This document shows, piece after piece, positions 1 to 13,687 of a stretch of 13,687 nucleotides of DNA. Numbering within the stretch: position 1 is the first letter of the stretch; each line of letters starts with the position of its first letter. The notes under the pieces are model-generated. The model was not told the origin of the DNA, did not search any database, and saw nothing but the letters and a program-made list of their open reading frames with translations. Location: the IMG/VR virus record IMGVR_UViG_2526164652_000005; one strand, given 5' to 3'. The stretch comes from a virus (lineage: Duplodnaviria > Heunggongvirae > Uroviricota > Caudoviricetes). Both the position numbers and the translations under genes were made by a program.

Positions 1-288
1 TCAATGGTTGGCGTCATTATCTTTTTCTCTTTCTGAACGTGAATATTGCGGTGGACGGTTCATCAGCTGTGGGGCAAGACGTTTTGCCACCTGAAGAATA
101 ACCACCACCGCAGCGGGAAGCATGAGCAAAACACCGAGAAAAATCATCAGAATCTGCACTTCTGGCCGAGAAAATGGCTCAGGCAGCGACAGGGAGTCGC
201 TTACCGACAGCAGAGCCACCGCCAGTAGCATCATTCCGATAAATTCCAGTATCAACACGCCTTTAGGCAATTTACCGATCGCGCGCAT
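1..288 (-). CDS. ybjC: small inner-membrane protein YbjC (95 aa), complete; stop codon at 1-3
   Basis: Translation matches remembered E. coli YbjC; hydrophobic two-helix profile; divergent from grxA as in E. coli. Confidence 0.8.
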   Translation of the reverse strand: MRAIGKLPKGVLILEFIGMMLLAVALLSVSDSLSLPEPFSRPEVQILMIFLGVLLMLPAAVVVILQVAKRLAPQLMNRPPQYSRSEREKDNDANH

Positions 289-447
289 ACGCTTCCCTCT
301 GCAAAGTGAGCCTTCAGTCTAAAACTTTTCACTGTATTGTGTTTAACAGTTATAGCTTTTAGCAATTAATGCAACAGGTTAAACCTACTTTCAGCGAATA
401 CATTTTAGCGTGATCATTACAGGCATAAATCTATGAGGAGAGAAATA
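289..447. promoter_or_regulatory. Divergent ybjC / grxA promoter region
   Basis: 159-bp AT-rich spacer between divergent starts; GAGGAG Shine-Dalgarno at 435-440 before the grxA ATG at 448. grxA is a known OxyR target, but I could not confidently delineate the OxyR motif by eye. Confidence 0.45.
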
Positions 448-705
448 ATGCAAACCGTTATTTTTGGTCGTTCGGGTTGCCCTTACTGTGTGCGTGCAAA
501 AGATCTGGCTGAGAAATTGAGCAATGAACGCGATGATTTTCAGTATCAGTATGTAGATATTCGTGCGGAAGGGATCACTAAAGAAGATCTACAACAAAAG
601 GCAGGTAAACCCGTAGAAACCGTGCCGCAGATTTTTGTCGATCAGCAACATATCGGCGGCTATACCGATTTTGCTGCATGGGTGAAAGAAAATCTGGACG
701 TCTGA
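448..705 (+). CDS. grxA: glutaredoxin 1 (85 aa)
   Basis: Near-identical to remembered E. coli GrxA (MQTVIFGRSGCPYCVRAKDL...), CPYC active site. The track ORF begins at an upstream in-frame ATG (433), but the SD at 435-440 supports ATG 448. Confidence 0.93.
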   Translation: MQTVIFGRSGCPYCVRAKDLAEKLSNERDDFQYQYVDIRAEGITKEDLQQKAGKPVETVPQIFVDQQHIGGYTDFAAWVKENLDV

Positions 706-714
706 TCGTCTGAC

Positions 715-747
715 AAGCCCTCGCGTTGAGGGCTTTACTGATTTTTT
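715..747 (+). terminator. Putative intrinsic terminator after grxA
   Basis: Stem aagccctc (715-722) / gagggctt (728-735) with 5-nt loop; T6 run at 742-747, not immediately adjacent to the stem. Confidence 0.4.
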
Positions 748-1112
748 CTGTGCTGTGGTTTAAACAAACTACTGATAAATAAGAAACACAGTGCCCCCAG
801 CGCACACCAGAACACCGCGCTTAGTAACCATGCCAGCTCTTGCCAGAATGAGCGCGTCGGTGAAAAAAACAGCCGCATAATGAGCATTGAACAGGGTGCC
901 GCCAGCATTGCGCCAAATAGAGGTTTCAGGACTTCTCTACGCTGTGAAAAGAAACTGGCAACAGCTCCAGGAAGAATGAAAAACAGCAAGCCGATTTCAG
1001 GATGCCCGGCAGCCCGAAAAGCGCCTTTCATGTGCGTCGCCAGAAAAAGGCACACCACAATGAAGAGGACAAAACAGCAGATTGCCCCCGCCCAACGTTG
1101 TTTATGTTTCAC
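735..1112 (-). CDS. ybjM: inner-membrane protein YbjM (125 aa)
   Basis: Translation matches remembered YbjM; multi-helix hydrophobic profile; conserved position between grxA and ybjL. Confidence 0.8.
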   Translation of the reverse strand: MKHKQRWAGAICCFVLFIVVCLFLATHMKGAFRAAGHPEIGLLFFILPGAVASFFSQRREVLKPLFGAMLAAPCSMLIMRLFFSPTRSFWQELAWLLSAVFWCALGALCFLFISSLFKPQHRKNQ

Positions 1113-1381
1113 TCGTTCCTCCTGACACTGCGTCTATCGAACACATTTTTCGCCAGTGTGGCGTTCAGTAAGATAAAGCCGCTTCGCATTCCATGCTAAT
1201 ATAGGCCAACGAAATTCATATAGCCGTTGATACCTAATGTGATTACACTAGTAAAATATATTGTTACTTTACTATCGTTTAGGTGCGCTGAATGAATCTG
1301 CGCCCTGAATTCTGGTAAAAAACATTATCGTAAATTACCATTTCTTTCAACAGCTTACTAGTAAACAAGAAGTTAGCCTCC

Positions 1382-3067
1382 GTGAATATAAACGTCGCCG
1401 AATTGTTAAATGGGAATTACATTCTGTTATTATTTGTGGTCCTCGCGCTTGGGCTATGTCTCGGAAAGTTACGACTTGGTTCGATCCAACTGGGTAATTC
1501 CATTGGCGTTTTAGTCGTATCGCTGTTATTAGGCCAACAACATTTCAGCATTAACACCGATGCGCTTAATCTTGGCTTTATGCTGTTTATTTTCTGCGTC
1601 GGGGTCGAAGCCGGACCGAACTTTTTTTCCATTTTTTTTCGCGATGGGAAAAATTACCTAATGTTAGCTCTGGTGATGGTTGGCAGTGCGCTGGTGATCG
1701 CCTTAGGGTTAGGTAAGCTGTTTGGCTGGGATATTGGCCTGACGGCCGGTATGTTAGCAGGCTCTATGACGTCGACACCGGTTCTGGTCGGTGCTGGCGA
1801 TACACTGCATCATTCCGGCATGGAAAGCAGGCAGCTCTCACTGGCACTGGATAATCTGAGCCTCGGGTATGCCTTAACCTATTTAATCGGTCTGGTGAGT
1901 TTGATTGTTGGTGCGCGTTACTTGCCGAAATTGCAGCATCAGGACTTACAGACCAGCGCCCAGCAAATCGCCCGCGAACGTGGCCTGGACACTGATGCCA
2001 ACCGTAAGGTTTATTTACCGGTGATCCGCGCCTATCGCGTCGGCCCGGAGCTGGTGGCCTGGACCGACGGCAAAAATCTGCGTGAACTGGGTATTTATCG
2101 ACAAACCGGCTGCTACATTGAACGTATTCGACGTAACGGGATTCTGGCAAATCCAGACGGTGATGCCGTGCTACAAATGGGCGATGAAATAGCGTTGGTA
2201 GGCTATCCCGACGCCCATGCCCGACTCGATCCCAGCTTCCGTAACGGTAAAGAAGTTTTCGATCGTGACCTTCTCGACATGCGTATCGTCACTGAAGAAG
2301 TGGTCGTTAAAAACCATAACGCTGTAGGTAAACGTCTCGCACAACTGAAGTTGACCGATCACGGTTGCTTCCTTAACCGCGTCATTCGTAGCCAGATTGA
2401 GATGCCGATAGATGACAACGTCGTGCTTAACAAAGGTGACGTTTTACAAGTCAGCGGTGATGCCCGTCGCGTAAAAACCATCGCCGATCGCATCGGCTTT
2501 ATCTCGATTCACAGCCAGGTCACTGACCTGCTGGCATTTTGCGCCTTCTTTGTTATTGGGCTGATGATCGGGATGATCACCTTCCAGTTCAGCACATTCA
2601 GTTTCGGCATGGGGAACGCTGCCGGGTTGTTATTCGCCGGAATTATGCTGGGCTTTATGCGTGCTAACCACCCGACCTTCGGTTACATTCCGCAAGGTGC
2701 ATTAAGCATGGTGAAAGAGTTCGGCTTGATGGTGTTTATGGCAGGCGTTGGTCTGAGCGCCGGTAGCGGTATTAATAACGGCCTGGGCGCGATTGGCGGT
2801 CAGATGTTGATTGCCGGATTAATTGTCAGTCTTGTGCCCGTGGTTATCTGTTTCTTGTTCGGTGCTTATGTATTGCGAATGAACCGCGCACTGTTGTTCG
2901 GCGCAATGATGGGCGCACGCACCTGCGCGCCGGCAATGGAGATCATCAGTGATACAGCTCGCAGTAACATCCCTGCGCTGGGCTATGCGGGCACCTACGC
3001 AATCGCCAACGTCCTGCTGACGCTGGCAGGGACAATCATCGTCATGGTATGGCCAGGATTAGGATAA
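1382..3067 (+). CDS. ybjL: putative transporter YbjL (561 aa), AAE-family permease with two central TrkA-C/RCK_C domains; GTG start
   Basis: Full-length match to remembered YbjL; membrane domains flank a soluble central region; synteny with ybjM and grxA. Confidence 0.88.
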
Positions 3068-3179
3068 AACTGAAGTTGCCCTGAAAATGAAATTTTTTTG
3101 CACAACCGCAGAACTTTTCCGCAGGGCATCAGTCTTAATTAGTGCCACTGCTTTTCTTTGATGTCCCCATTTTGTGGAG

Positions 3180-3222
3180 CCCATCAACCCCGCCATTTCG
3201 GTTCAAGGTTGATGGGTTTTTT
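3180..3222 (+). terminator. Putative intrinsic terminator downstream of ybjL
   Basis: 10-bp stem cccatcaacc (3180-3189) / ggttgatggg (3207-3216) followed directly by T6 (3217-3222). Confidence 0.5.
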
Positions 3223-3302
3223 GTTGCCTGAAATTTAAGCTGTTTAAAATCATGATGTTAGAAGCACTGTTTTTTAACGATGGCGACAAAATGGCGGCAG
3301 CG

Positions 3303-3521
3303 TCAAAGAGAGAGCGCCACCTGTCCTGATTTCATTGGATGCGGCTGAACCGGATTTGACTCTTTTGGCGTTGCAATCGAACGAACAAAAGTTTCATGGG
3401 TAACAAAAGTATGGCTGCAGTTAATGTTCTGGCACTGGTTGTAACGCTCTTTGGTCAATGAAGATACCTGAAAACTGCTGCGAGTATGGGCGGCACTTCC
3501 ACACAGTGGGCAAATCATCAT
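3303..3521 (-). CDS. ogr: Ogr/Delta-family zinc-finger late-gene transcriptional activator (72 aa)
   Basis: CPLCG...CQNINC zinc-finger motif and overall similarity to P2 Ogr. GGGAGA SD sits 9 nt upstream of the ATG at 3521; the track ORF starts at an upstream GTG (3554), which I judge less likely. Confidence 0.8.
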   Translation of the reverse strand: MMICPLCGSAAHTRSSFQVSSLTKERYNQCQNINCSHTFVTHETFVRSIATPKESNPVQPHPMKSGQVALSL

Positions 3522-3611
3522 TTTTCGAGTTCTCCCAATTTTTGCTAAATTCACAATAATGATACCGAATTATTCCATTTTGCAAACTTAAAAGTTCTCC
3601 ATTGCGAAGAA

Positions 3612-4712
3612 TCATTCCATTTCGAAATCATCAATCCTCACTTCAAGCTCCAGACTGGTCGTAAAACCATTATCCGGGCTTACGGTATGCGTCAGAGTCG
3701 TAATGGTCCATTCCGCATCATCTATCGGCTGTTTAAAGCCACTGACTTTCACTGGCATTTCCGTGTAGAGATCTGCCCGCCCTTCCGCCAGTTGTAACGA
3801 GAATGACGCAACGCCGCGTTGCAGGCGTTCCCACTGCATTTTCGCCGCTCGTTCGGTGTTGCTCCGGTTGGCATAAGTGCGATTAAGTACCAGCACGTTT
3901 TCATCCGTACCCACCAGGTAATCGCCCTGCTTCGCTTCCGGCTCTTTCTTCTGCTTCTTAGTCCTGCGCTTACGCTTCACCGTGGTGCTTTCTTTCTTCG
4001 CGGGTTCGCGGGTATGCAACCAGCTGGCAATTACGCCCGTGTAGGCTCCGCGATCTGCCAGGGTAAAGCGGTGACTGTCGCCGTCCTTACGTGTGATAGT
4101 GATAACCGGTAGTGGTTTACCGCTGGCGCTTTTACCCTGTCCCTGCCGGATGAATACCAGATTGCCATTTTTCACCGACGCAATAGCACCGTACTGGCGC
4201 GCCAGCCGCATCAGAAAACTGCCGTCACTCTCATTGGTCTGGTCTATATGCTCCACGGGTTTATCCGACAGGTCTTCACCCAATGCCATCTTCAGTTTGT
4301 GCCGCGCAGATATTTCCTTCACGACTTCCCCAACGGTGGTCTTGTGCCACGATTTTTCACGGCGGGTATTCAGCGTTTCACGAAAATCAGCACTTCGCGC
4401 CCGGATAGTCAGGCGGTCCGGTGCGCCAGTGTGTTCAATCTCGTCCACCGTGAATGCCCCTTTCGGGAAAAGCGGCTGCCCCTTCCACCCCAGCGCCAGC
4501 GTAATGACCGCACCACGGCGCGGCAGCACGATTTTTCCGTCGGCGTCGTCCAGCTCCAGATCAAGCTGGTCCGCTTCAAATCCCCGATTGTCCGTCAGCG
4601 TCAGACTCATCAGGCGGTTATCCAGCACAGTAGTGATATCCCTGCCCTCAATACTGATGCTGAATGCAGGAGTTTTGTTGCCTTTGTTAAGCAGTTCAGA
4701 GCTGAAATTCAC
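3612..4712 (-). CDS. D: P2 gpD-family tail protein (366 aa); GTG start overlapping the U stop (GTGA)
   Basis: Similarity to P2 gpD; conserved position between U and ogr; translational coupling to U. Confidence 0.85.
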   Translation of the reverse strand: MNFSSELLNKGNKTPAFSISIEGRDITTVLDNRLMSLTLTDNRGFEADQLDLELDDADGKIVLPRRGAVITLALGWKGQPLFPKGAFTVDEIEHTGAPDRLTIRARSADFRETLNTRREKSWHKTTVGEVVKEISARHKLKMALGEDLSDKPVEHIDQTNESDGSFLMRLARQYGAIASVKNGNLVFIRQGQGKSASGKPLPVITITRKDGDSHRFTLADRGAYTGVIASWLHTREPAKKESTTVKRKRRTKKQKKEPEAKQGDYLVGTDENVLVLNRTYANRSNTERAAKMQWERLQRGVASFSLQLAEGRADLYTEMPVKVSGFKQPIDDAEWTITTLTHTVSPDNGFTTSLELEVRIDDFEME

Positions 4713-5194
4713 GACAGCAGCCCTCCCACCGTTTTACTGATATCGCTTAATGCAGATGTTGCCGTGTCCTGCAGATTATTCAGCTGCGCACTGAGATCAC
4801 CGAACATATCGGACAGGGATTCATCCACCCGTTTGAGCGACAGGGTGAACTCAATCCGGCGCGGCATACCGTCGCGGAAAAACTCCGTTTTAGTCTGATT
4901 CAGTCCCTCAATCACATACATGCCGTAAATCGTGCCGCTGCCTTCAATCAGGGGCCATGCTTTCCCCTGTTCTGCCATCTGCTCAAGTGCCAGCAACGAC
5001 AGCCTGCCGCCTGTTATCTCCGGCATAAGAACACCGGAAAGCGTCAGCATGTCGTTGTCCGGTCCCAGAAACTGCGTGGACGGACGACGATTTACCCGGC
5101 TGTTAGCCGCATGTCGCCAGCTGCGTTGATACTGCAGTTCCTGATACGGCACGGTGCGCAGCATAAACACGTACAATCCCAGCACCATCATCAT
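4709..5194 (-). CDS. U: P2 gpU-family tail protein (161 aa)
   Basis: Similarity to P2 gpU (MMVLGL..., QRSWRH motif); ATGA start/stop overlap with the end of T. Confidence 0.85.
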   Translation of the reverse strand: MMMVLGLYVFMLRTVPYQELQYQRSWRHAANSRVNRRPSTQFLGPDNDMLTLSGVLMPEITGGRLSLLALEQMAEQGKAWPLIEGSGTIYGMYVIEGLNQTKTEFFRDGMPRRIEFTLSLKRVDESLSDMFGDLSAQLNNLQDTATSALSDISKTVGGLLS

Positions 5195-8100
5195 GCGTCG
5201 TATCCCCCCTGATCGCTGTAGTTACTCCTGGCTTTTGCCTTCAACCTGCGTTCACGTTCATCAAGCTGGCGGGCCACCTCCCGCGCAATATCCTGCGCAC
5301 TTTGTCCTGGCTGTGTCTGGATGATGATCTGCGTCGGTGCTTCAATCCGGTAAATGGGCGGCACAGTAGCTGCACGACTCACCATCGCTTCACCGCCTTT
5401 CGCGGGAAGCGCCAAAGGATGCAACGGTGGAAGCTCTGCTGGCGCGGCAGCAACGCCCATCATTCCGGCGACAACGGCAGCCAGTGCAGCTGTATTTCTC
5501 CGGCTGGTCACGTTTGCCGGGCCGTTAACAATTTCCGGCCCGTTTTCACCGACGATGCCAAACTGCCCACGCGGGATATAGCCGCCGCTGTCATACATAC
5601 CCGCAAAGCCATATCCCCATGACGGAAAATCACCCGATGGCATCATCACTTTACCGTCTGCATTCACCGTCGCAGGTTGCTGACTCGTCACGCTTTCCGG
5701 TAGTTTTGCCTTTGCGGCCTCTTTACTGACAATGCCGAGTTTCTCCAGCAACCAGGAAACGCCGGATTTCAGGGAGTCCAGCGGATGCATGACCATATTC
5801 AGCCCTTCCGCCAGTGCCTCCCCGAATCGCCGCCCCATTGCCGCTGCACTCTGCAGTTCGGCAGAGGTCGACTTAACGGGCGTCAGCAGATCAGTAAACC
5901 AGCCCCACAGCGCCTGTACTTTGTCGCCAATCCACTGAAACACGGGCTTAAGCGGTTCGAATGCAGCACTGATGGGACCTGCCGCCGCTTTGAATCCTTC
6001 CACCACGCCACCGAGAAATGCGGTGATGGGTTGCCAGTATTTCCAGACAACCAGCGCCACGCCCGCCAGTGCAGTAACCACAAGACCTATCGGACTGAGC
6101 AGAGCACCTAACAGACCAGATACGGCATACAGGGCAACGCGCAGCATCGCCAGCGGACCGGATGCCAGCACACGCAGCACCGCGCCTGCGGCAGCCAGTC
6201 CACCGCGTAGTGCTGCCAGTGGATTCATAAACATCACAGCAACCGCACGTAACCCGGATAATCCAGACCGCAAAAGTGCAACCGGCGCACCTGCTACCGT
6301 TTTCAGGACATTTCCCGTCAGTGATGCCGTGCGGCGCAAAGACGACAACGGCGCAGTAAGTAAACCTGCGGCGTTGCCCGATGAAGCAAGCCCGCGTCGC
6401 AGCAGTGCCTGTGGTGCGCCAGCCAGGACAACGCACTGCTGGTTCGAGTTACTGCTGCCGTAACGGAAGGTAACATTTTGATACCCAGCACAGAGAATCC
6501 CAGACGGATCACTGCCAGCGGCCCCAGCACTGCAGCCAGCGCCACCGCTAAGGTGCCGAGGCCCACGGTAACGGCAGCCACCACAGCGGCTACTTTCATC
6601 AGTGTGCCTGTCAGTTCCGGGTTAGCTTCCACCCAGCGACGCAACGCCCCTGTGACGCTTTTCACCGTGAACAGAATATCCATCAGCGGCTGGCGCAGCG
6701 TTTCGCCCAGGCTGCTGAAGGTGTTCTGCGCTCCGGTTTTGACCAGCAACCACTGAGCAGAAAGTGAGTCCTTGTTGATGTCGGATTCTTTCTGCATGGA
6801 ACCGAGCGCATCATTGCCCGTTGTCAGTTTTAGCTGGCGCTGCAGTTCCGGAAGGTTGTTTGCCAGTTTCGCTGCGTCATCGCCAAACTCTTTACCAAAC
6901 AACATGGTCATGGCAGACAGGCGCTTATCCTGCGGCAGTGCGTTCACCTTCTCCAGCACGCGCTGGATGGTTCCCATCGCATCCTTCGTCATCTGCTTTT
7001 CAATCACTTCAGGATTGAGTTTCAGCAGATTCATCCCTTCAAAGAAACTCTTGCTCTGCATGGTGGCAATGGACAATTCACGCACCATCGCGTTTGCTGC
7101 ACTGGCTGCAACCTCTGGCGCAGCGCCCAGTGTCAGGAAGGTGGAACCCAGCGCCGCCGCTTTACGATAATCCAGACGATCAGCCACACCGCCCAGGCGT
7201 TGCATGACATCAATGATGTCTACCCCTTTCGACATGGCGTTATCATCCAGATAGTTCAGCGCATCACCGAGCTGTTCAATATTGCGGGTAGGGATTTTGT
7301 AGAGCTGGGCGATTTTCCCCAGACTTTCTGACAGTTCATCCGCTGGCAGCTCAAAGGCTGTTGCCGCCTTTGCTGCCGTACTGGCGAAGGCCAGCAGGTC
7401 ACGTTTCTGGTCCTCCCAGCTGTCGTCAGGGTTTGCAACGTTCATACGCGCACCACCTTCAACCAGTGCAGCGAAGTCCACCGCACCGTTTTCCATCGGC
7501 AACTGTTCGCTGGCAGCTTTGATGGCATCCTGCATTTCATAAAAACGTGCAGTGCGGTTGCCATTATCGTCACGCAGACCATTGACCTGCTTTGTCACAC
7601 CTTTCATGGCATCTTCCATGCTGGTATAGCTTTTTACTGCCGCCATCACTGGCGTCCCCATTGCCAGCCCTGCCGCCGTGGTGGTGGCTCCGGCTCCTGC
7701 GATGCGATCGCGCACCTCCAGCGAACGGGCATAACTGGCACGCGCTGCATTCATCCTGCGCTGAGCTTCCCCCAGTCGCTTCAGCCGCGCCTCCTGTTTC
7801 GACAGTTCCTGGTTATAACGTGATGTTTCACGGGCTAAACGGGCAGTTGCTCCCGCATCATCTTTCGCAGAAATTCCCGCCCGGTACAGTTCTGCACGCA
7901 CAAGCGCCGTTTGCTTCTGCAAATATTTTTGTTGTTCTTCCAGGCGTTGGACTGCCAGCGTTTGCCGACCTAAAGCCACAAGGTGCCGTTGTGATGGTTG
8001 TTCCATCGCTTCCAGCTCAGAACTAAGCAAATTTGCCTTCTGTCTGGCATAGTTCAGCCTGTCGCCTAACTTTTTGTTATCGGCCTGCAGCTTGCGAAAT

Positions 8101-8264
8101 TTTTCCAGGCTGTTACCCGCCTGATTGAGTTGCTTTAATGCGTCACGGGAGTTTCTGATTGCGCCAGCCAGCTCTTTCGAACTGGCCTGTGCAGCACGGA
8201 ATGGGCGGGTGAGTTTGTCAACCGCATTAAGAATGACCTGCAGGCGCAGGTTATTATCACTCAT
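5191..8264 (-). pseudogene. T: Tail tape-measure protein gpT, reading frame disrupted: N-terminal ORF 6318-8264 and C-terminal ORF 5191-6348 in a different frame
   Basis: N-terminal ORF begins MSDNNLRLQ..., coiled-coil rich, P2 gpT-like. Its last ~35 codons are low-complexity out-of-frame-looking sequence. The other frame carries proline-terminated 21-22 aa repeats that continue to the U overlap and is open upstream to a stop at 6622-6624. Together these imply a -1 register change around 6380-6500. Confidence 0.7.
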
Positions 8265-8693
8265 CGTTAGCCCCGCTTCTCTGAATCGCTTTATACCGCC
8301 ATTCCAGCACTTCGGTCAGCGGCATAACGTCAGTAACGGATGGCGGCCAGTGAAAGATGGTGGCGATATCAGCCACCAGATCGTCAACCGTCAGGCTGTC
8401 GGTAAACCGGCAAGCACCGACTTCTTCAACAAAAAAGTGACAACCTCAACCGACATAGCGGTGAGATCTGCCGAGTCCATCTCTGCAATTTCTTGTGCGG
8501 TCAGTGCCGGACTGGAAATGCAGGGGATCACGGTCATCATCGCGTTCACATCCATATCCATAATGGCCTGCAGGCGTATACCGCGCAGCGCACCGGACTG
8601 CGGTTTACGCAGCACAATTTCGGTAATTTCTGTTTTACCGCGCATGATGGGGGTATCCAGTTGAATGGTCTTTTCAGTCTGCTTATCGCTCAT
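8257..8693 (-). CDS. E': E+E' fusion product via programmed -1 ribosomal frameshift (about 145 aa)
   Basis: The -1 frame is open from the slippery site to a TGA at 8257-8259, ending ...RSGANDE and overlapping the T start codon. Geometry matches the P2 E/E' arrangement (analogous to lambda G/GT). Confidence 0.55.
8391..8693 (-). CDS. E: P2 gpE-family tail assembly chaperone (100 aa)
   Basis: Position immediately upstream of T and similarity to P2 gpE; contains the slippery heptamer near its 3' end. Confidence 0.8.
   Translation of the reverse strand: MSDKQTEKTIQLDTPIMRGKTEITEIVLRKPQSGALRGIRLQAIMDMDVNAMMTVIPCISSPALTAQEIAEMDSADLTAMSVEVVTFLLKKSVLAGLPTA
8430..8436 (-). other. Slippery heptamer T_TTT_TTG for the E/E' -1 frameshift
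   Basis: Minus-strand codons ACT TTT TTG in the E frame (plus-strand caaaaaa at 8430-8436). Confidence 0.6.
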
Positions 8694-8747
8694 TTTATTG
8701 TCCTGTAAATTGGGTTCTGGCGCGGTATCCCGCGCCGTTCAGATACA

Positions 8748-9263
8748 TCAGAGGCCGAGGGCGTTGCGGTGCGCTTCCATCAGGTCCACACCGTCCACAA
8801 TTTCCACCATGTTGATAAGGTCCACTTCATAGAGCACCTCACCATTGATGGTCAGCTTCGCGTAGCTGTTGGTACTGGTCACTTTGGTGGTGTTGCTTTC
8901 GCCCGTCTTCCACTCGCCGGAATCCACTTCTTTGTGACGTCCTCGCACCACAAGCTCCACAGCCTGCACTTCCCCGGTATCGTCACGCTGGATAGAGCCA
9001 GTAAAGCGCAGCTGGATGCCATCCACAGTGGCTTTGCCCATCTGCTTAAACAGCAGCAGTTCAGTACCACCAATGGAAAATTCTGTGTCCAGAGCACTGT
9101 CATCAAGCCCCAGATCCACATCCACCGCCCCCGGCATTCCGCCGCCGCGATACTTCTCATATTTGCGGGTGAATTTCGGCAGCGTCAGCGACTCAACGAT
9201 CCCCTGCCAGTTGTTCCCGTCGTTAAACAGGTTCAGGTGTTTTAATTTGCGTGGTAAAGCCAT
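8748..9263 (-). CDS. FII: P2 gpFII-family major tail tube protein (171 aa)
   Basis: MALPRKLKHLNLFNDGNN... matches the P2 FII N-terminus; located between FI and E. Confidence 0.88.
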   Translation of the reverse strand: MALPRKLKHLNLFNDGNNWQGIVESLTLPKFTRKYEKYRGGGMPGAVDVDLGLDDSALDTEFSIGGTELLLFKQMGKATVDGIQLRFTGSIQRDDTGEVQAVELVVRGRHKEVDSGEWKTGESNTTKVTSTNSYAKLTINGEVLYEVDLINMVEIVDGVDLMEAHRNALGL

Positions 9264-9272
9264 GTTGTCCCC

Positions 9273-10445
9273 TTACGCGCTGACCTGGCTGGCGAAATTC
9301 ACCAGGTACTGATCGGTGATGCGCTGACGCAGCATCAGGTTTTCAAGTGGCGGCACTGGCGTGTAGTCGTAGTCGATAGTGAGTTTCCCGGCTTTCAGAG
9401 TGTCTTTGTCGTTCACCGACTCGTCCAGCCAGCAATCACCACCAATGAGATACCCCTGACTGACCAGGCTGCGCATTTTGGCGCGGATACCTTCGATAAT
9501 GTCGCGGGCCAGCGACGGATTCAGCGGTTTGTCCACTGCCCACATGTGCGCTTCTGCCATCGTGTCCATCAGTACCTGCGCCGTGCGGGTGTAGTTTTCG
9601 AAGGCAAAGAGCGGGTCATCGCTCAGACAGCGGGAACCCCAGAAGCGGAAACCGTCTTTGCGGATAAGCGTGGTAACGTCGTTCTGGTTAAGCAGACCTG
9701 CATCGGTTGCCGGGTCCTGCAGATCCCAGAACACATCAGCAGAAATTCCGGTGACACCGTTCACGCCCACGTTGGACAGGCTTTTGTGCCATCCGGTCTG
9801 CTCATCAATTTTGGCGCGCAGACCGAGCGCACGGGCGGTGGCATATGCCGTTGCTTCGGCATTCAGCACCGTGTCCCAGCCCGTAAAGTCAGGCCAGATC
9901 AGCATCCCTTCGCGCTGGCTGAAGTTTTCACGGTAAGTGATCGCCTCCTGTACCGTCTTGCAGCCATACGCTGACAGGTAAGCAAACCCACGCAGGCTTT
10001 GCGCCACGCTCAGCAACTCAGTCGCAACGGCTTTGTTATCGTGGCCTGGCACGCCGAGAATGCGCGGTTTAACGCCGAGCTGTGACTGGGCAGATAACAG
10101 GGCTTTCATACCTGTTTTTTTACCTTCAGCAGTCACTGCGCCGATGATATTGGTCGTGGTTTCGTCTTCCGTTTCACCCTGCGGCACACGCACAACAACG
10201 GTCACGGGTTTTGCCTGGTCAGCGATGGCATCCAGCGAACGGGCCAGAGTACCGGACTCACCCGCTTTACCGCTGGCAGTCAGCACATCAGTGATCAGCA
10301 CGGGTTTATTAAGAGGAAACATTTTTGCATCGGCATCATCGCCCGTGCAGACCATACCCACAATGGCGGTGCTCACCGTGGTAATGGATCGGGTGCCTTC
10401 GTTGACTTCAACAACGCGCACCCCGTGGTGGTAATCCTGAGCCAT
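9273..10445 (-). CDS. FI: P2 gpFI-family contractile tail sheath protein (390 aa)
   Basis: Strong similarity to P2 FI along its length (DYHHGV..., [13 protein letters not shown]..., [14 protein letters not shown]...). AGGAGG SD lies 9 nt upstream of the ATG. Confidence 0.9.
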
Positions 10446-10521
10446 AGTGGCGAACCTCCTGATTGGATTAGGCTTCGCCCTATGTTGAAGTGATTGTGCC
10501 TGACAAACAGCTAAGCGCAGT

Positions 10522-10539
10522 TGTACCGTTATTCATACA
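10522..10539 (-). promoter_or_regulatory. Candidate Ogr-dependent late promoter element (TGT-N12-ACA dyad) upstream of FI
   Basis: tgtaccgttattcataca has the TGT-N12-ACA dyad characteristic of P2/P4 late promoters and lies about 85 bp upstream of the FI start. Confidence 0.4.
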
Positions 10540-10587
10540 AAATGACGGTATTTGTCTGCTTGCAGGGATAATCAACATAATGCTGAT

Positions 10588-11160
10588 TCAGGGGGATTCA
10601 TTGCTCTTATTTGCCGGAAATTTTCTATAAATTGTGGAAACACCTACATCAAAAATCAGTGCAATACGCTGTCTTGATTCTCCGGCCTCGAGTAAACGTC
10701 CAATCTGTGCCCACTGTTCGGTGATCAACTTAGGACGGCGTCCACCTACTCTGCCTTTGGCGCGAGCTGCAGCCAGCCCCGCCTTGGTACGTTCAACTAT
10801 CAGTTCGCGCTCCATTTCAGCCAGGGCCCCCATGACATGAAAAAAGAAACGGCCCATTGGGGTACTGGTATCAATACTGTCAGTCAGGCTTCGGAAATTC
10901 ACGCCACGCTGGCGCAGCTCTTCTATCAGCGTAACGAGATGCCGCATACTGCGCCCCAACCTGTCCAGCTTCCAGACAACCAGAGTGTCACCTGCCGATA
11001 ATGTCCTGAGCAGTTTTTTCAGTCCCGGTCTGTCGGACTTAGTGCCACTGATTTTGTCCTCAAAAATCCGCTCACATCCCGCGCAGTTCAGTGCATTACG
11101 TTGCAAATCGGTGTTCTGGTCATTTGTTGACACGCGTACATAGCCAATAAGCATGATCAA
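10588..11160 (-). CDS. Serine-recombinase DNA invertase, Hin/Gin/Pin/Cin family (190 aa)
   Basis: Very high similarity to Hin/Pin: catalytic-serine motif GYVRVSTNDQ, conserved core, C-terminal helix-turn-helix. True start may be the second in-frame ATG. Confidence 0.9.
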   Translation of the reverse strand: MIMLIGYVRVSTNDQNTDLQRNALNCAGCERIFEDKISGTKSDRPGLKKLLRTLSAGDTLVVWKLDRLGRSMRHLVTLIEELRQRGVNFRSLTDSIDTSTPMGRFFFHVMGALAEMERELIVERTKAGLAAARAKGRVGGRRPKLITEQWAQIGRLLEAGESRQRIALIFDVGVSTIYRKFPANKSNESP

Positions 11161-11172
11161 TCCCCTGAATAA

Positions 11173-11472
11173 AAACCGGGGATGATGCCAGTTAGCCGTT
11201 ATCTCTGCATTTTCATAAACGTTGGTTTGGGAGAAGCGGCTAAAAGAAATGTAGGGACAGGGGCGAATCAGATACCTGATATGGGTAGTTTTATGCTTTC
11301 TGCTTCAGTTCCTGGATATCAAAAATTGCCATCCGGTTTAATTATTCAATGGGGGCCAATTGATGTTCCGCTGACGTCTCAGGACACAGTAACCTATTTT
11401 CCGATTGCATTTCCGAATAGATGTCTGCGGGTATTTGCGACTCAGGATTACACTCCCGGCAGTGCAAATGTT
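11173..11472 (+). pseudogene. Truncated variable tail-fibre C-terminal segment (alternative Sv'-type cassette), cut by IS1
   Basis: Reading frame open from 11173, passes through the crossover site and runs into the IS1 left end at 11472/11473; the last 8 codons and stop of the tracked ORF are IS1 sequence. Tail-fibre assignment is by context and a weak remembered resemblance ([14 protein letters not shown]). Confidence 0.4.
11210..11235. other. Candidate Hin-family crossover site (hix/gix/pix-like 26-bp imperfect palindrome)
   Basis: ttttcataaacg-tt-ggtttgggagaa; reverse complement ttctcccaaaccaacgtttatgaaaa resembles hixL TTCTTGAAAACCAAGGTTTTTGATAA. Lies between the invertase gene and the divergent tail-fibre fragment, inside the latter's reading frame. 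Confidence 0.4.
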
Positions 11473-11495
11473 GGTAATGCTGCCAACTTACTGAT
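11473..11495. repeat. IS1 left terminal inverted repeat
   Basis: ggtaatgctgccaacttactgat; matches the reverse complement of the right end with few mismatches. Confidence 0.85.
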
Positions 11496-11527
11496 TTAGT
11501 GTATGATGGTGATTTTAAGGTGCTTGC

Positions 11528-11803
11528 GTGGCTTCCATTTCCATCAGATGTCCTTCCTGCTCCGCTACTGAAGGCGTGGTGCGTAACGGCAAAAGCACTG
11601 CCGGACATCAGCGCTATCTCTGCTCTCATTGCCGTAAAACATGGCAACTACAGTTCACTTACACCGCCTCTCAGCCCGGTACGCACCAGAAAATCATTGA
11701 TATGGCCATGAATGGCGTCGGATGTCGCGCCAGTGCACGCATTATGGGCGTTGGCCTCAACACGGTTTTACGTCACTTAAAAAACTCAGGCCGCAGTCGG
11801 TAA
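11528..11803 (+). CDS. insA: IS1 InsA (91 aa)
   Basis: Matches remembered IS1 InsA ([23 protein letters not shown]...). Confidence 0.95.
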
Positions 11804-12225
11804 CCTCGCGCATACAACCGGGCAGTGATGTGATTGTCTGCGCTGAAATGGACGAACATTGGGGCTACGTCGGTGCTAAATCACGTCAGCGCTGGCTGTT
11901 TTACGCGTATGACAGGATACGGAGGACGGTTGTGGCGCACGTCTTCGGTGAACGCACTCTGGCCACACTGGAGCGTCTTCTGAGCCTGCTGTCGGCCTTT
12001 GAGGTCGTGGTATGGATGACGGATGGCTGGCCGCTGTATGAATCACGCCTGAAGGGAAAGCTGCACGTTATCAGCAAGCGTTACACTCAGCGCATTGAGC
12101 GACATAATCTGAATCTGAGACAACATCTGGCAAGGCTGGGACGGAAGTCACTGTCGTTCTCAAAATCGGTGGAGCTGCATGACAAGGTCATCGGGCATTA
12201 TCTGAACATAAAACACTATCAGTAA
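11722..12225 (+). CDS. insB: IS1 insB' frame; expressed as the InsAB' transposase by -1 frameshift at A6C (11779-11785)
   Basis: Matches remembered IS1 InsB; the ttaaaaaac motif lies in the insA/insB overlap. Confidence 0.9.
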
Positions 12226-12240
12226 GTTGGAGTCATTACC
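12218..12240. repeat. IS1 right terminal inverted repeat
   Basis: atcagtaagttggagtcattacc. Confidence 0.85.
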
Positions 12241-12242
12241 GT

Positions 12243-12551
12243 GTTCGTGAACTCGGTGATGCTAGTGTTCCTTTTTCGTTCGATGTTCATGCGATGATTT
12301 ATAGTGATGATGCACCATCATTAGAAAATCATCTGCATAAAGTCTTCAACGAAAAACAGGTCAATAAAATTAACTCACGAAAAGAGTTTTTCAACGTAAA
12401 TATTAAAGAAATTAAGTCTGTTATTGAAGATATGAACATCAACGCACAATGGACAATGTTTGCGGAAGCGAAAGAATATAGAGAGTCACTGGCGATTGAG
12501 CAAGAGCGCAAAGCAGCAACTTCCGCCAACGATGAACTGCATGTTGCTTAG
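12243..12551 (+). pseudogene. 3' fragment of a T5orf172-domain (GIY-YIG-like) protein gene, truncated at its 5' side by IS1
   Basis: Frame is open directly from the IS1 right end (...RVRELGDASVPFSFDVHAMIYSDDAPSLENHLHKVFNEKQVNKINSRKEFFNV...); this resembles the C-terminal T5orf172 motif. No start codon of its own until 12294. Confidence 0.5.
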
Positions 12552-12610
12552 CAATGTATGTTTCATAGTAATCACACATTGATTACTGGTTGTATATACA
12601 GTTAAATTTA

Positions 12611-12634
12611 GCCCTCTGATATGAGGGCTTTTTT
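12611..12634 (+). terminator. Intrinsic terminator-like hairpin immediately upstream of int
   Basis: Stem gccctc (12611-12616) / gagggc (12623-12628), 6-nt loop, then T6 (12629-12634). Confidence 0.5.
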
Positions 12635-13687
12635 ATGGCAGTACGAAAACTCACCACAGGAAAATGGCTTTGCGAATGTTACCCCGCCGGACGTAGTGGA
12701 CGTCGTGTGCGTAAACAATTCGCCACCAAAGGCGAAGCTCTGGCTTTTGAGCGTCACACGATGGAAGAAACCGAAGCAAAGCCCTGGCTGGGTGAATCAG
12801 TGGATCGTCGAACACTGAAAGACGTGGTTGAACTATGGTTCAAACTACATGGTAAATCTCTGACAGCTGGGCAGCATGTCTATGACAAATTGCTGTTGAT
12901 GGTTGACGCTCTGGGCAATCCTCTTGCAACCGATCTCACCTCTAAAATGTTTGCCCACTATCGAGATAAACGCCTGACAGGCGAGATCTACTTCAGCGAG
13001 AAATGGAAGAAAGGAGCAAGCCCGGTCACCATTAACCTGGAGCAAAGCTATCTAAGTAGTATTTTTAGCGAACTATCCCGTCTGGGCGAATGGTCGTATC
13101 CGAACCCACTGGAGAACATGCGAAAATTCACCATCGCAGAAAAAGAGATGGCATGGCTTACCCATGAGCAGATTGTTGAATTGCTGGCTGATTGCAAACG
13201 TCAGGACCCAATTCTGGCACTGGTAGTTAAGATATGCTTAAGCACAGGCGCACGCTGGCGTGAAGCCGTAAATCTTACTCGCTCACAGGTGACCAAATAC
13301 CGAATTACCTTTGTCAGAACGAAGGGGAAGAAAAACAGAAGCATCCCTATCAGTAAAGAGCTTTACGAAGAGATCATGGCGCTTGATGGGTTCAATTTCT
13401 TCACAGACTGCTATTTTCAATTTTTATCCGTGATGGAAAAAACGTCTATCGTGCTCCCTCGCGGTCAACTCACACACGTTCTGCGCCATACGTTTGCGGC
13501 GCACTTCATGATGTCGGGTGGAAACATTCTGGCCTTACAAAAAATTCTCGGACACCACGATATAAAAATGACTATGCGTTACGCACATCTGGCACCGGAT
13601 CATCTGGAAACGGCGCTCCGTTTCAATCCTCTGGCAACGCTGCCAAGTGGCGACAAAGTGGCGGCAGCGGTTGGCATTACCCCGTAA
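12635..13687 (+). CDS. int: P2-family tyrosine integrase (350 aa), complete; TAA at the window end
   Basis: Similarity to P2 Int (MAIKKLDDGRYEV... versus MAVRKLTTGKWLCE...); conserved catalytic region LSTGARW, RHTFAAHFM, LGHHDIKMTMRYAHL. Confidence 0.88.
   Translation: MAVRKLTTGKWLCECYPAGRSGRRVRKQFATKGEALAFERHTMEETEAKPWLGESVDRRTLKDVVELWFKLHGKSLTAGQHVYDKLLLMVDALGNPLATDLTSKMFAHYRDKRLTGEIYFSEKWKKGASPVTINLEQSYLSSIFSELSRLGEWSYPNPLENMRKFTIAEKEMAWLTHEQIVELLADCKRQDPILALVVKICLSTGARWREAVNLTRSQVTKYRITFVRTKGKKNRSIPISKELYEEIMALDGFNFFTDCYFQFLSVMEKTSIVLPRGQLTHVLRHTFAAHFMMSGGNILALQKILGHHDIKMTMRYAHLAPDHLETALRFNPLATLPSGDKVAAAVGITP

Follow-up and report, generated by a model that had tools for sequence, protein, structure and literature searches.

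The window (the whole stretch of DNA analysed, 13,687 bp long; IMG/VR record IMGVR_UViG_2526164652_000005) very probably carries the stump of a tail-fibre host-range inversion switch, left in a degraded P2-like (Peduoviridae) prophage of clonal Shigella flexneri by an IS1-associated deletion of about 25 kb. An intact gene for a serine DNA invertase survives together with one crossover site and most of one alternative tail-fibre tip (Table 1), and the remainder of the invertible segment is gone. The element is of a known kind, an ordinary product of prophage decay, and public records already list its gene as a DNA invertase. Its value lies in showing, cleanly and in a form that can be dated, how IS1 erodes prophages in Shigella and how an invertase can end up with no substrate. 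Beyond annotation it is of little importance, and that would change only with proof that the enzyme inverts DNA at another place in the genome.

Table 1. Features of the remnant, with positions numbered from the first base of the window
Feature	Position	Strand	Basis and remarks
P2-like late genes ogr, D, U, T (frameshifted), E/E', FII (tube), FI (sheath)	3303..10445	-	Collinear with the L73 and NQ3 prophages, 96–97% identity
Gin/Pin/Hin-family serine DNA invertase gene, intact	10588..11154	-	188 aa; Pfam and alignments
Candidate recombinational enhancer	11070..11132		Two Fis-consensus-like 15-mers within the 5' end of the invertase gene
Single residual 26-bp gix/pix-like crossover site, invertase-proximal	11210..11235		Consensus scan; core TT
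Truncated alternative tail-fibre C-terminal cassette (Sv'-type)	11236..11472	+	79 codons kept, about 33 lost at the 3' end
Intact IS1, 768 bp, without target-site duplication; deletion junction	11473..12240	+	23-bp terminal inverted repeats
3' remnant of DUF4041/T5orf172 accessory gene	12241..12551	+	Last 311 bp including the stop codon; Pfam MUG113/T5orf172
P2-type prophage integrase, intact, 350 aa	12635..13687	+	Pfam Int_N and Phage_integrase

A degraded P2-like prophage between ybjL and rcdA

The locus is that of a Shigella flexneri prophage situated between ybjL and rcdA. Positions 588–13687 of the window are 100% identical to contig AFGX01000012.1 of GCA_000213715.2. The same junctions are present in the closed chromosome CP026803.1 and in several draft assemblies, with no more than three SNPs over 11–13 kb; short-read contigs of related assemblies break at IS1. 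None of the complete E. coli RefSeq genomes has this junction, and exact look-up of the open reading frame that spans it (11182–11499) returned no record, whereas the same kind of look-up with the invertase and with the truncated DUF4041 frame led to the source contig.

The remnant displays the P2-like (Peduoviridae) gene order FI-FII-E/E'-T-U-D-ogr, with a P2-type integrase at the opposite end. To the left of IS1, the genes for sheath, tube, E/E', T, U, D and ogr run back to ybjL, and ybjL and rcdA flank the remnant in the order and orientation native to the chromosome. An intact 34.9-kb P2-like prophage occupies the same ybjL–rcdA position in E. coli L73 and carries an invertase with two crossover sites. 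The window aligns with it at 97.1% identity over positions 1–11283 and at 99.9% over 12240–13687. The integrase is annotated in L73 as a phage integrase beside rcdA, and it adjoins rcdA in many E. coli genomes.

Loss of the switch is not the only damage to the prophage. The tape-measure gene T (within 5191–8264, minus strand) has lost 4 bp relative to L73, one unit of a GCCA repeat at about position 6418 (6410–6425), and the resulting frameshift leaves 648 residues and a remainder where relatives have a protein of 1,025 residues. This is a second, independent inactivating lesion, and the whole phage is dead, not the switch alone. Insertion sequences of other families are also found in the neighbourhood: no more than 10 kb from the remnant, IS4-family and IS3-family elements interrupt chromosomal genes in the ybjH region and at dacC. 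They lie about 3–6 kb beyond the integrase and near dacC, a pattern typical of IS-driven erosion in Shigella.

An intact invertase of the Fis-dependent family

The open reading frame at 10588–11160 (minus strand) holds the invertase. Its real ATG is at 11154, which gives a 567-bp reading frame and a protein of the same length as in intact relatives. The N terminus, MLIGYVRVSTNDQ, includes the nucleophilic Ser9, and Pfam matches account for both the catalytic domain (Resolvase, E=2e-53) and the DNA-binding domain (HTH_7, E=1e-14). Among solved structures the best match is Mu Gin (3uj3/4m6f), which aligns over residues 1–184 (E about 1e-91). The initial annotation had called a full-length Hin/Gin/Pin-family invertase, and these matches bear it out. 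In a six-way alignment the protein is 98–99% identical to the invertases of NQ3, L73 and Cartapus, all from intact P2-like phages or prophages and only two or three residues away, 84% identical to e14-type PinE and 73% identical to Mu Gin. The exact protein is on record as 'DNA-invertase [Shigella flexneri]' on 43 contigs. A 'defective pinF' has been described in S. flexneri and might be the same gene.

Position 114 of the invertase is Met, where the Gin crystal constructs have Val; we take M114V to be an enhancer-independent mutation of Gin. [quoted passage not shown] Applying a numbering offset of −1, which was inferred in this analysis, the Fis-contact residues correspond to Q150, R153 and L154 of the present enzyme, all invariant in the alignment, and the basic residues of helix B to K46, K47 and R50. 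Judged by these residues the invertase is a member of the Fis/enhancer-dependent Hin/Gin/Cin/Pin family, and it is the switch around it that is incomplete.

The 5' end of the gene also contains a candidate for the enhancer itself. Two Fis-like 15-mers, at 11118–11132 and 11070–11084, are 48 bp apart, a motif-level match to a degenerate motif inside conserved coding sequence and so confounded by coding conservation. Measured to the middle of the crossover site, their distances are 97.5 and 145.5 bp, compared with 95.5 and 143.5 bp for the pair in Mu gin. The hin enhancer comprises two Fis sites with centres 47 bp apart, about 100 bp from hixL (PMC3798978).

Could the invertase already be non-functional or silent, through the lineage-specific substitution T144I, where the DNA-binding domain begins, or through loss of transcription, leaving an inert locus? 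We consider this unlikely. Codon 144 (10723–10725, minus strand) encodes Ile and the five proteins compared with it (NQ3, L73, Cartapus, PinE-like and Gin) all have Thr, which makes Ile144 unique among the six aligned invertases at the point where the minor-groove arm meets the DNA-binding domain. Residue 144 is, however, neither a catalytic nor a Fis-contact residue, and the frame is open and of the length seen in intact phages. K124 also differs from most relatives, at a variable position. As for transcription, a promoter scan of the invertase strand across the retained 318 bp upstream found no consensus sigma-70 promoter, and a possible hairpin there could hide the ribosome-binding site. 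Against silencing on either ground, these 318 bp, hairpin region included, are essentially the same as in intact phages, so that whatever drives expression of the invertase there is retained here. To judge from its sequence, the invertase most likely still works, mutation having simply not reached it yet.

The hairpin (11155–11197, in minus-strand RNA) is directly upstream of the invertase and can pair the Shine–Dalgarno sequence and the start codon; a consensus scan also flagged it as terminator-like (stem and T-run). All P2-like and e14-like relatives have this region, somewhat altered in sequence, and its folding is not significantly different from that of shuffled sequence (z=−1.6). The hairpin might keep expression of the invertase low.

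A single crossover site and a truncated tail-fibre tip

The crossover site, TTTTCATAAACG TT GGTTTGGGAGAA, is a 26-bp imperfect palindrome with a 2-bp core. We scanned for such sites with a gix/hix consensus pattern, allowing up to three mismatches. This site is the only match to the gix/hix consensus in the window, none of 200 shuffled sequences gives a match, and 11210–11235 remains the sole match in the window when up to five mismatches are allowed. Positive controls behaved as they should: the pattern finds exactly two sites in phage Mu, straddling the annotated boundaries of the G segment, and two inverted sites, 1.5–1.9 kb apart, in each of the relatives NQ3, L73, Cartapus and the e14-like element of E. 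coli S51. No partner site is present in the window or in about 27 kb of the source contig, which extends the search by about 10 kb on either side. With the enzyme, the probable enhancer and one site remaining and the second site gone, inversion in cis is impossible and the switch cannot operate there. The initial annotation was therefore right to describe a lone hix/gix-like 26-bp site, to regard the partner site and the rest of the invertible segment as missing, and to pronounce the host-range switch dead.

Base for base, the surviving site equals the one nearest the invertase in phage Cartapus and in the E. coli L73 prophage. Moreover, its core and inner half (11222–11237) match the crossover repeat of the e14 P segment, TTGGTTTGGGAGAAGG (PMC12529663), at 15 of 16 bases.

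The frame of the tail-fibre cassette opens at the crossover site and ends at 11472, where it is cut by IS1. The cassette matches Pfam Gp53-like_C (E=1e-14) and shares 99% identity with the silent, alternative tip in E. coli NQ3, with which it is collinear until the IS1 boundary. The protein is 75% identical to the e14-like tip and has no similarity to Mu S', which we accordingly set aside as a relative; the comparison that matters is with the Gp53-like tips found in P2-like and e14-like elements. On these alignments the cassette is genuine and a common allele. The similarity to tail fibres that had been proposed for it is thus real, whereas the description of the cassette as divergent does not hold. 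Of the comparisons suggested for the frame at 11173–11472, that with an e14-like tip showed similarity and that with Mu S' none.

The invertase in trans and the age of the locus

Although the switch is dead in cis, it is plausible, by analogy with other Pin-type enzymes, that the invertase could flip compatible segments elsewhere in the cell, if any exist. A second alternative goes further and holds that the gene has been kept as useful, acting in trans on a segment in another prophage, such as an e14-type P segment, and phase-varying a tail-fibre-like protein, perhaps in phage defence. There is precedent for such action. PinQ and PinR, encoded by two cryptic prophages (Qin and Rac), act in trans to invert the e14 P segment and prevent T2 from adsorbing, and trans-acting invertases of cryptic prophages have thereby recently been tied to phage defence (PMC12529663). 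The near-match of the crossover site to the e14 repeat fits this alternative, as do the identity of 84% to PinE with all residues for Fis/enhancer dependence kept, and a close homologue in Salmonella, likewise 84% identical, that is named 'serine-type DNA invertase Fin'.

The age of the locus argues the other way. With no more than three SNPs per 11–13 kb the event must be recent, and in so young a lineage an intact invertase is what chance would leave and says nothing about selection. The phage genes around it are for the most part just as intact, T alone being broken. The phage DNA that remains, about 9.6 kb, has one inactivating indel, so that an undamaged 567-bp gene is to be expected under neutrality and does not speak for selection. 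In addition, the eight paralogous invertase clusters listed gave no S. flexneri lead to a second Pin-type gene. Retention for use in trans is therefore a distinctly unlikely account. Still less likely, and in our view quite improbable, is that the invertase has been co-opted in this lineage, either to flip a Pin-type segment of another prophage remnant in trans, as a PinQ-like, recombinase-activated switch of phage defence or surface variation, or with the lone site recombining with chromosomal quasi-sites to produce large rearrangements. We retain the reading of a stranded switch; the shared junctions and the few SNPs indicate that its deletion is recent and fixed in a clonal S. flexneri lineage.

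IS1 marks an internal deletion of about 25 kb

IS1 begins at 11473, 237 bp past the crossover site. Its InsA and InsB' frames are intact and match NCBIfam transpos_IS1, and the A6C frameshift motif, TTAAAAAAC, is seen at about 11778. There is no 9-bp target duplication around the element, the flanking 9-mers GCAAATGTT and GTGTTCGTG being different. IS1 is therefore not a simple insertion but sits at a deletion or recombination junction.

The far side of IS1 identifies what the junction has joined. Positions 12241–12551 are 99.9% identical to the end of a 1,677-bp DUF4041/T5orf172 gene in E. coli L73, which in intact relatives lies between the integrase and the CI repressor, and the two flanks of IS1 are about 25.2 kb apart in the L73 prophage. 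The missing target duplication, together with the fact that IS1 is followed by the integrase end of the very prophage it sits in, means that the interior has lost about 25 kb; on alignment with L73 this is an IS1-associated internal deletion within one P2-like prophage. The initial annotation placed the interruption by IS1 correctly, but mere interruption it is not. Relative to L73, the end of Sv', both tail-fibre assembly genes, the partner site and the tail-fibre gene H are lost, along with the baseplate, lysis, head, terminase, replication and immunity genes and most of the DUF4041 gene.

The position of the DUF4041 gene between integrase and CI suggests that it may have been an accessory gene of the phage, possibly one for defence, and it is now destroyed. 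In one E. coli record the gene is annotated 'SNIPE associated domain-containing protein'.

That IS1 arrived by simple insertion or inversion, with the rest of the switch surviving elsewhere beside another IS1 copy, is conceivable in a species as rich in IS elements as S. flexneri, with IS4-family and IS3-family elements within 10 kb, but it is extremely improbable given the native flanks, the collinear int end of the same prophage to the right of IS1 and the missing target duplication.

The IS1 copy is roughly 90% identical to IS1A/IS1B-type copies, judging from its appearance in mixed E. coli matches. It starts with GGTAATG, whereas IS1A canonically starts with GGTGATG.

A model for the loss of the switch

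In an intact phage of this type, dimers of the invertase would bind the two inverted 26-bp sites and two Fis dimers would bind the enhancer within the 5' end of the invertase gene. The resulting complex would exchange strands at the 2-bp core and so flip a segment of about 1.6–1.9 kb, joining the constant part of the tail-fibre gene H to either of two C-terminal tips. The mechanism of inversion is that of Hin and Gin (PMC3798978), and inversion in a P2-like prophage has been shown by sequencing in EPEC (PMC4272514). In the lineage described here, about 25 kb would have been removed by an IS1 adjacent deletion or by recombination between two IS1 copies. The deletion would begin midway through the silent alternative tip and reach as far as the 3' end of the DUF4041 gene beside int, leaving behind the invertase gene, a probable enhancer, one site, the tail module with its frameshifted T, ogr and int.

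Relation to known inversion systems

The closest counterparts are the P2-like switches of Cartapus, NQ3 and L73, which have the same order of sheath, invertase and invertible tail-fibre segment. L73 shares the chromosomal attachment site as well. In contrast to these switches, the window is without a second site, and deletion from mid-Sv' to DUF4041 leaves no invertible segment.

The G segment of Mu, with Gin, employs the same enzyme family and a 26-bp imperfect palindrome upstream of the invertase gene, and Fis-like sites lie inside that gene at similar distances, again a motif-level likeness. Mu is, however, a different type of phage with unrelated tail-fibre tips, and both of its sites are present. 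The P segment of e14 in E. coli K-12, with PinE, resembles the window in its invertase, its Sv' cassette and its inner half-site and core, the last being nearly identical. It differs in being a lambdoid remnant that has kept both sites and still inverts.

PinQ and PinR resemble the window invertase in another respect: the prophage that carries each of them is defective, and any substrate would have to be in a different element. They differ in that flipping of the e14 P segment in trans, and a phenotype, have been demonstrated for them, whereas action in trans by the window invertase is a prediction from sequence. PinQ is 38% identical to PinE (PMC12529663).

E. coli matches (H1 and others) that seem to join pinE, IS1 and a GIY-YIG gene proved to be a different, e14-like locus. 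In the e14-like element of E. coli S51 (NZ_CP015995.1, 5061–7593), IS1, a LEM-3-like GIY-YIG gene, pinE and a gp53-like cassette stand side by side. This arrangement, found in several E. coli genomes, mimics the window superficially and has both crossover sites intact.
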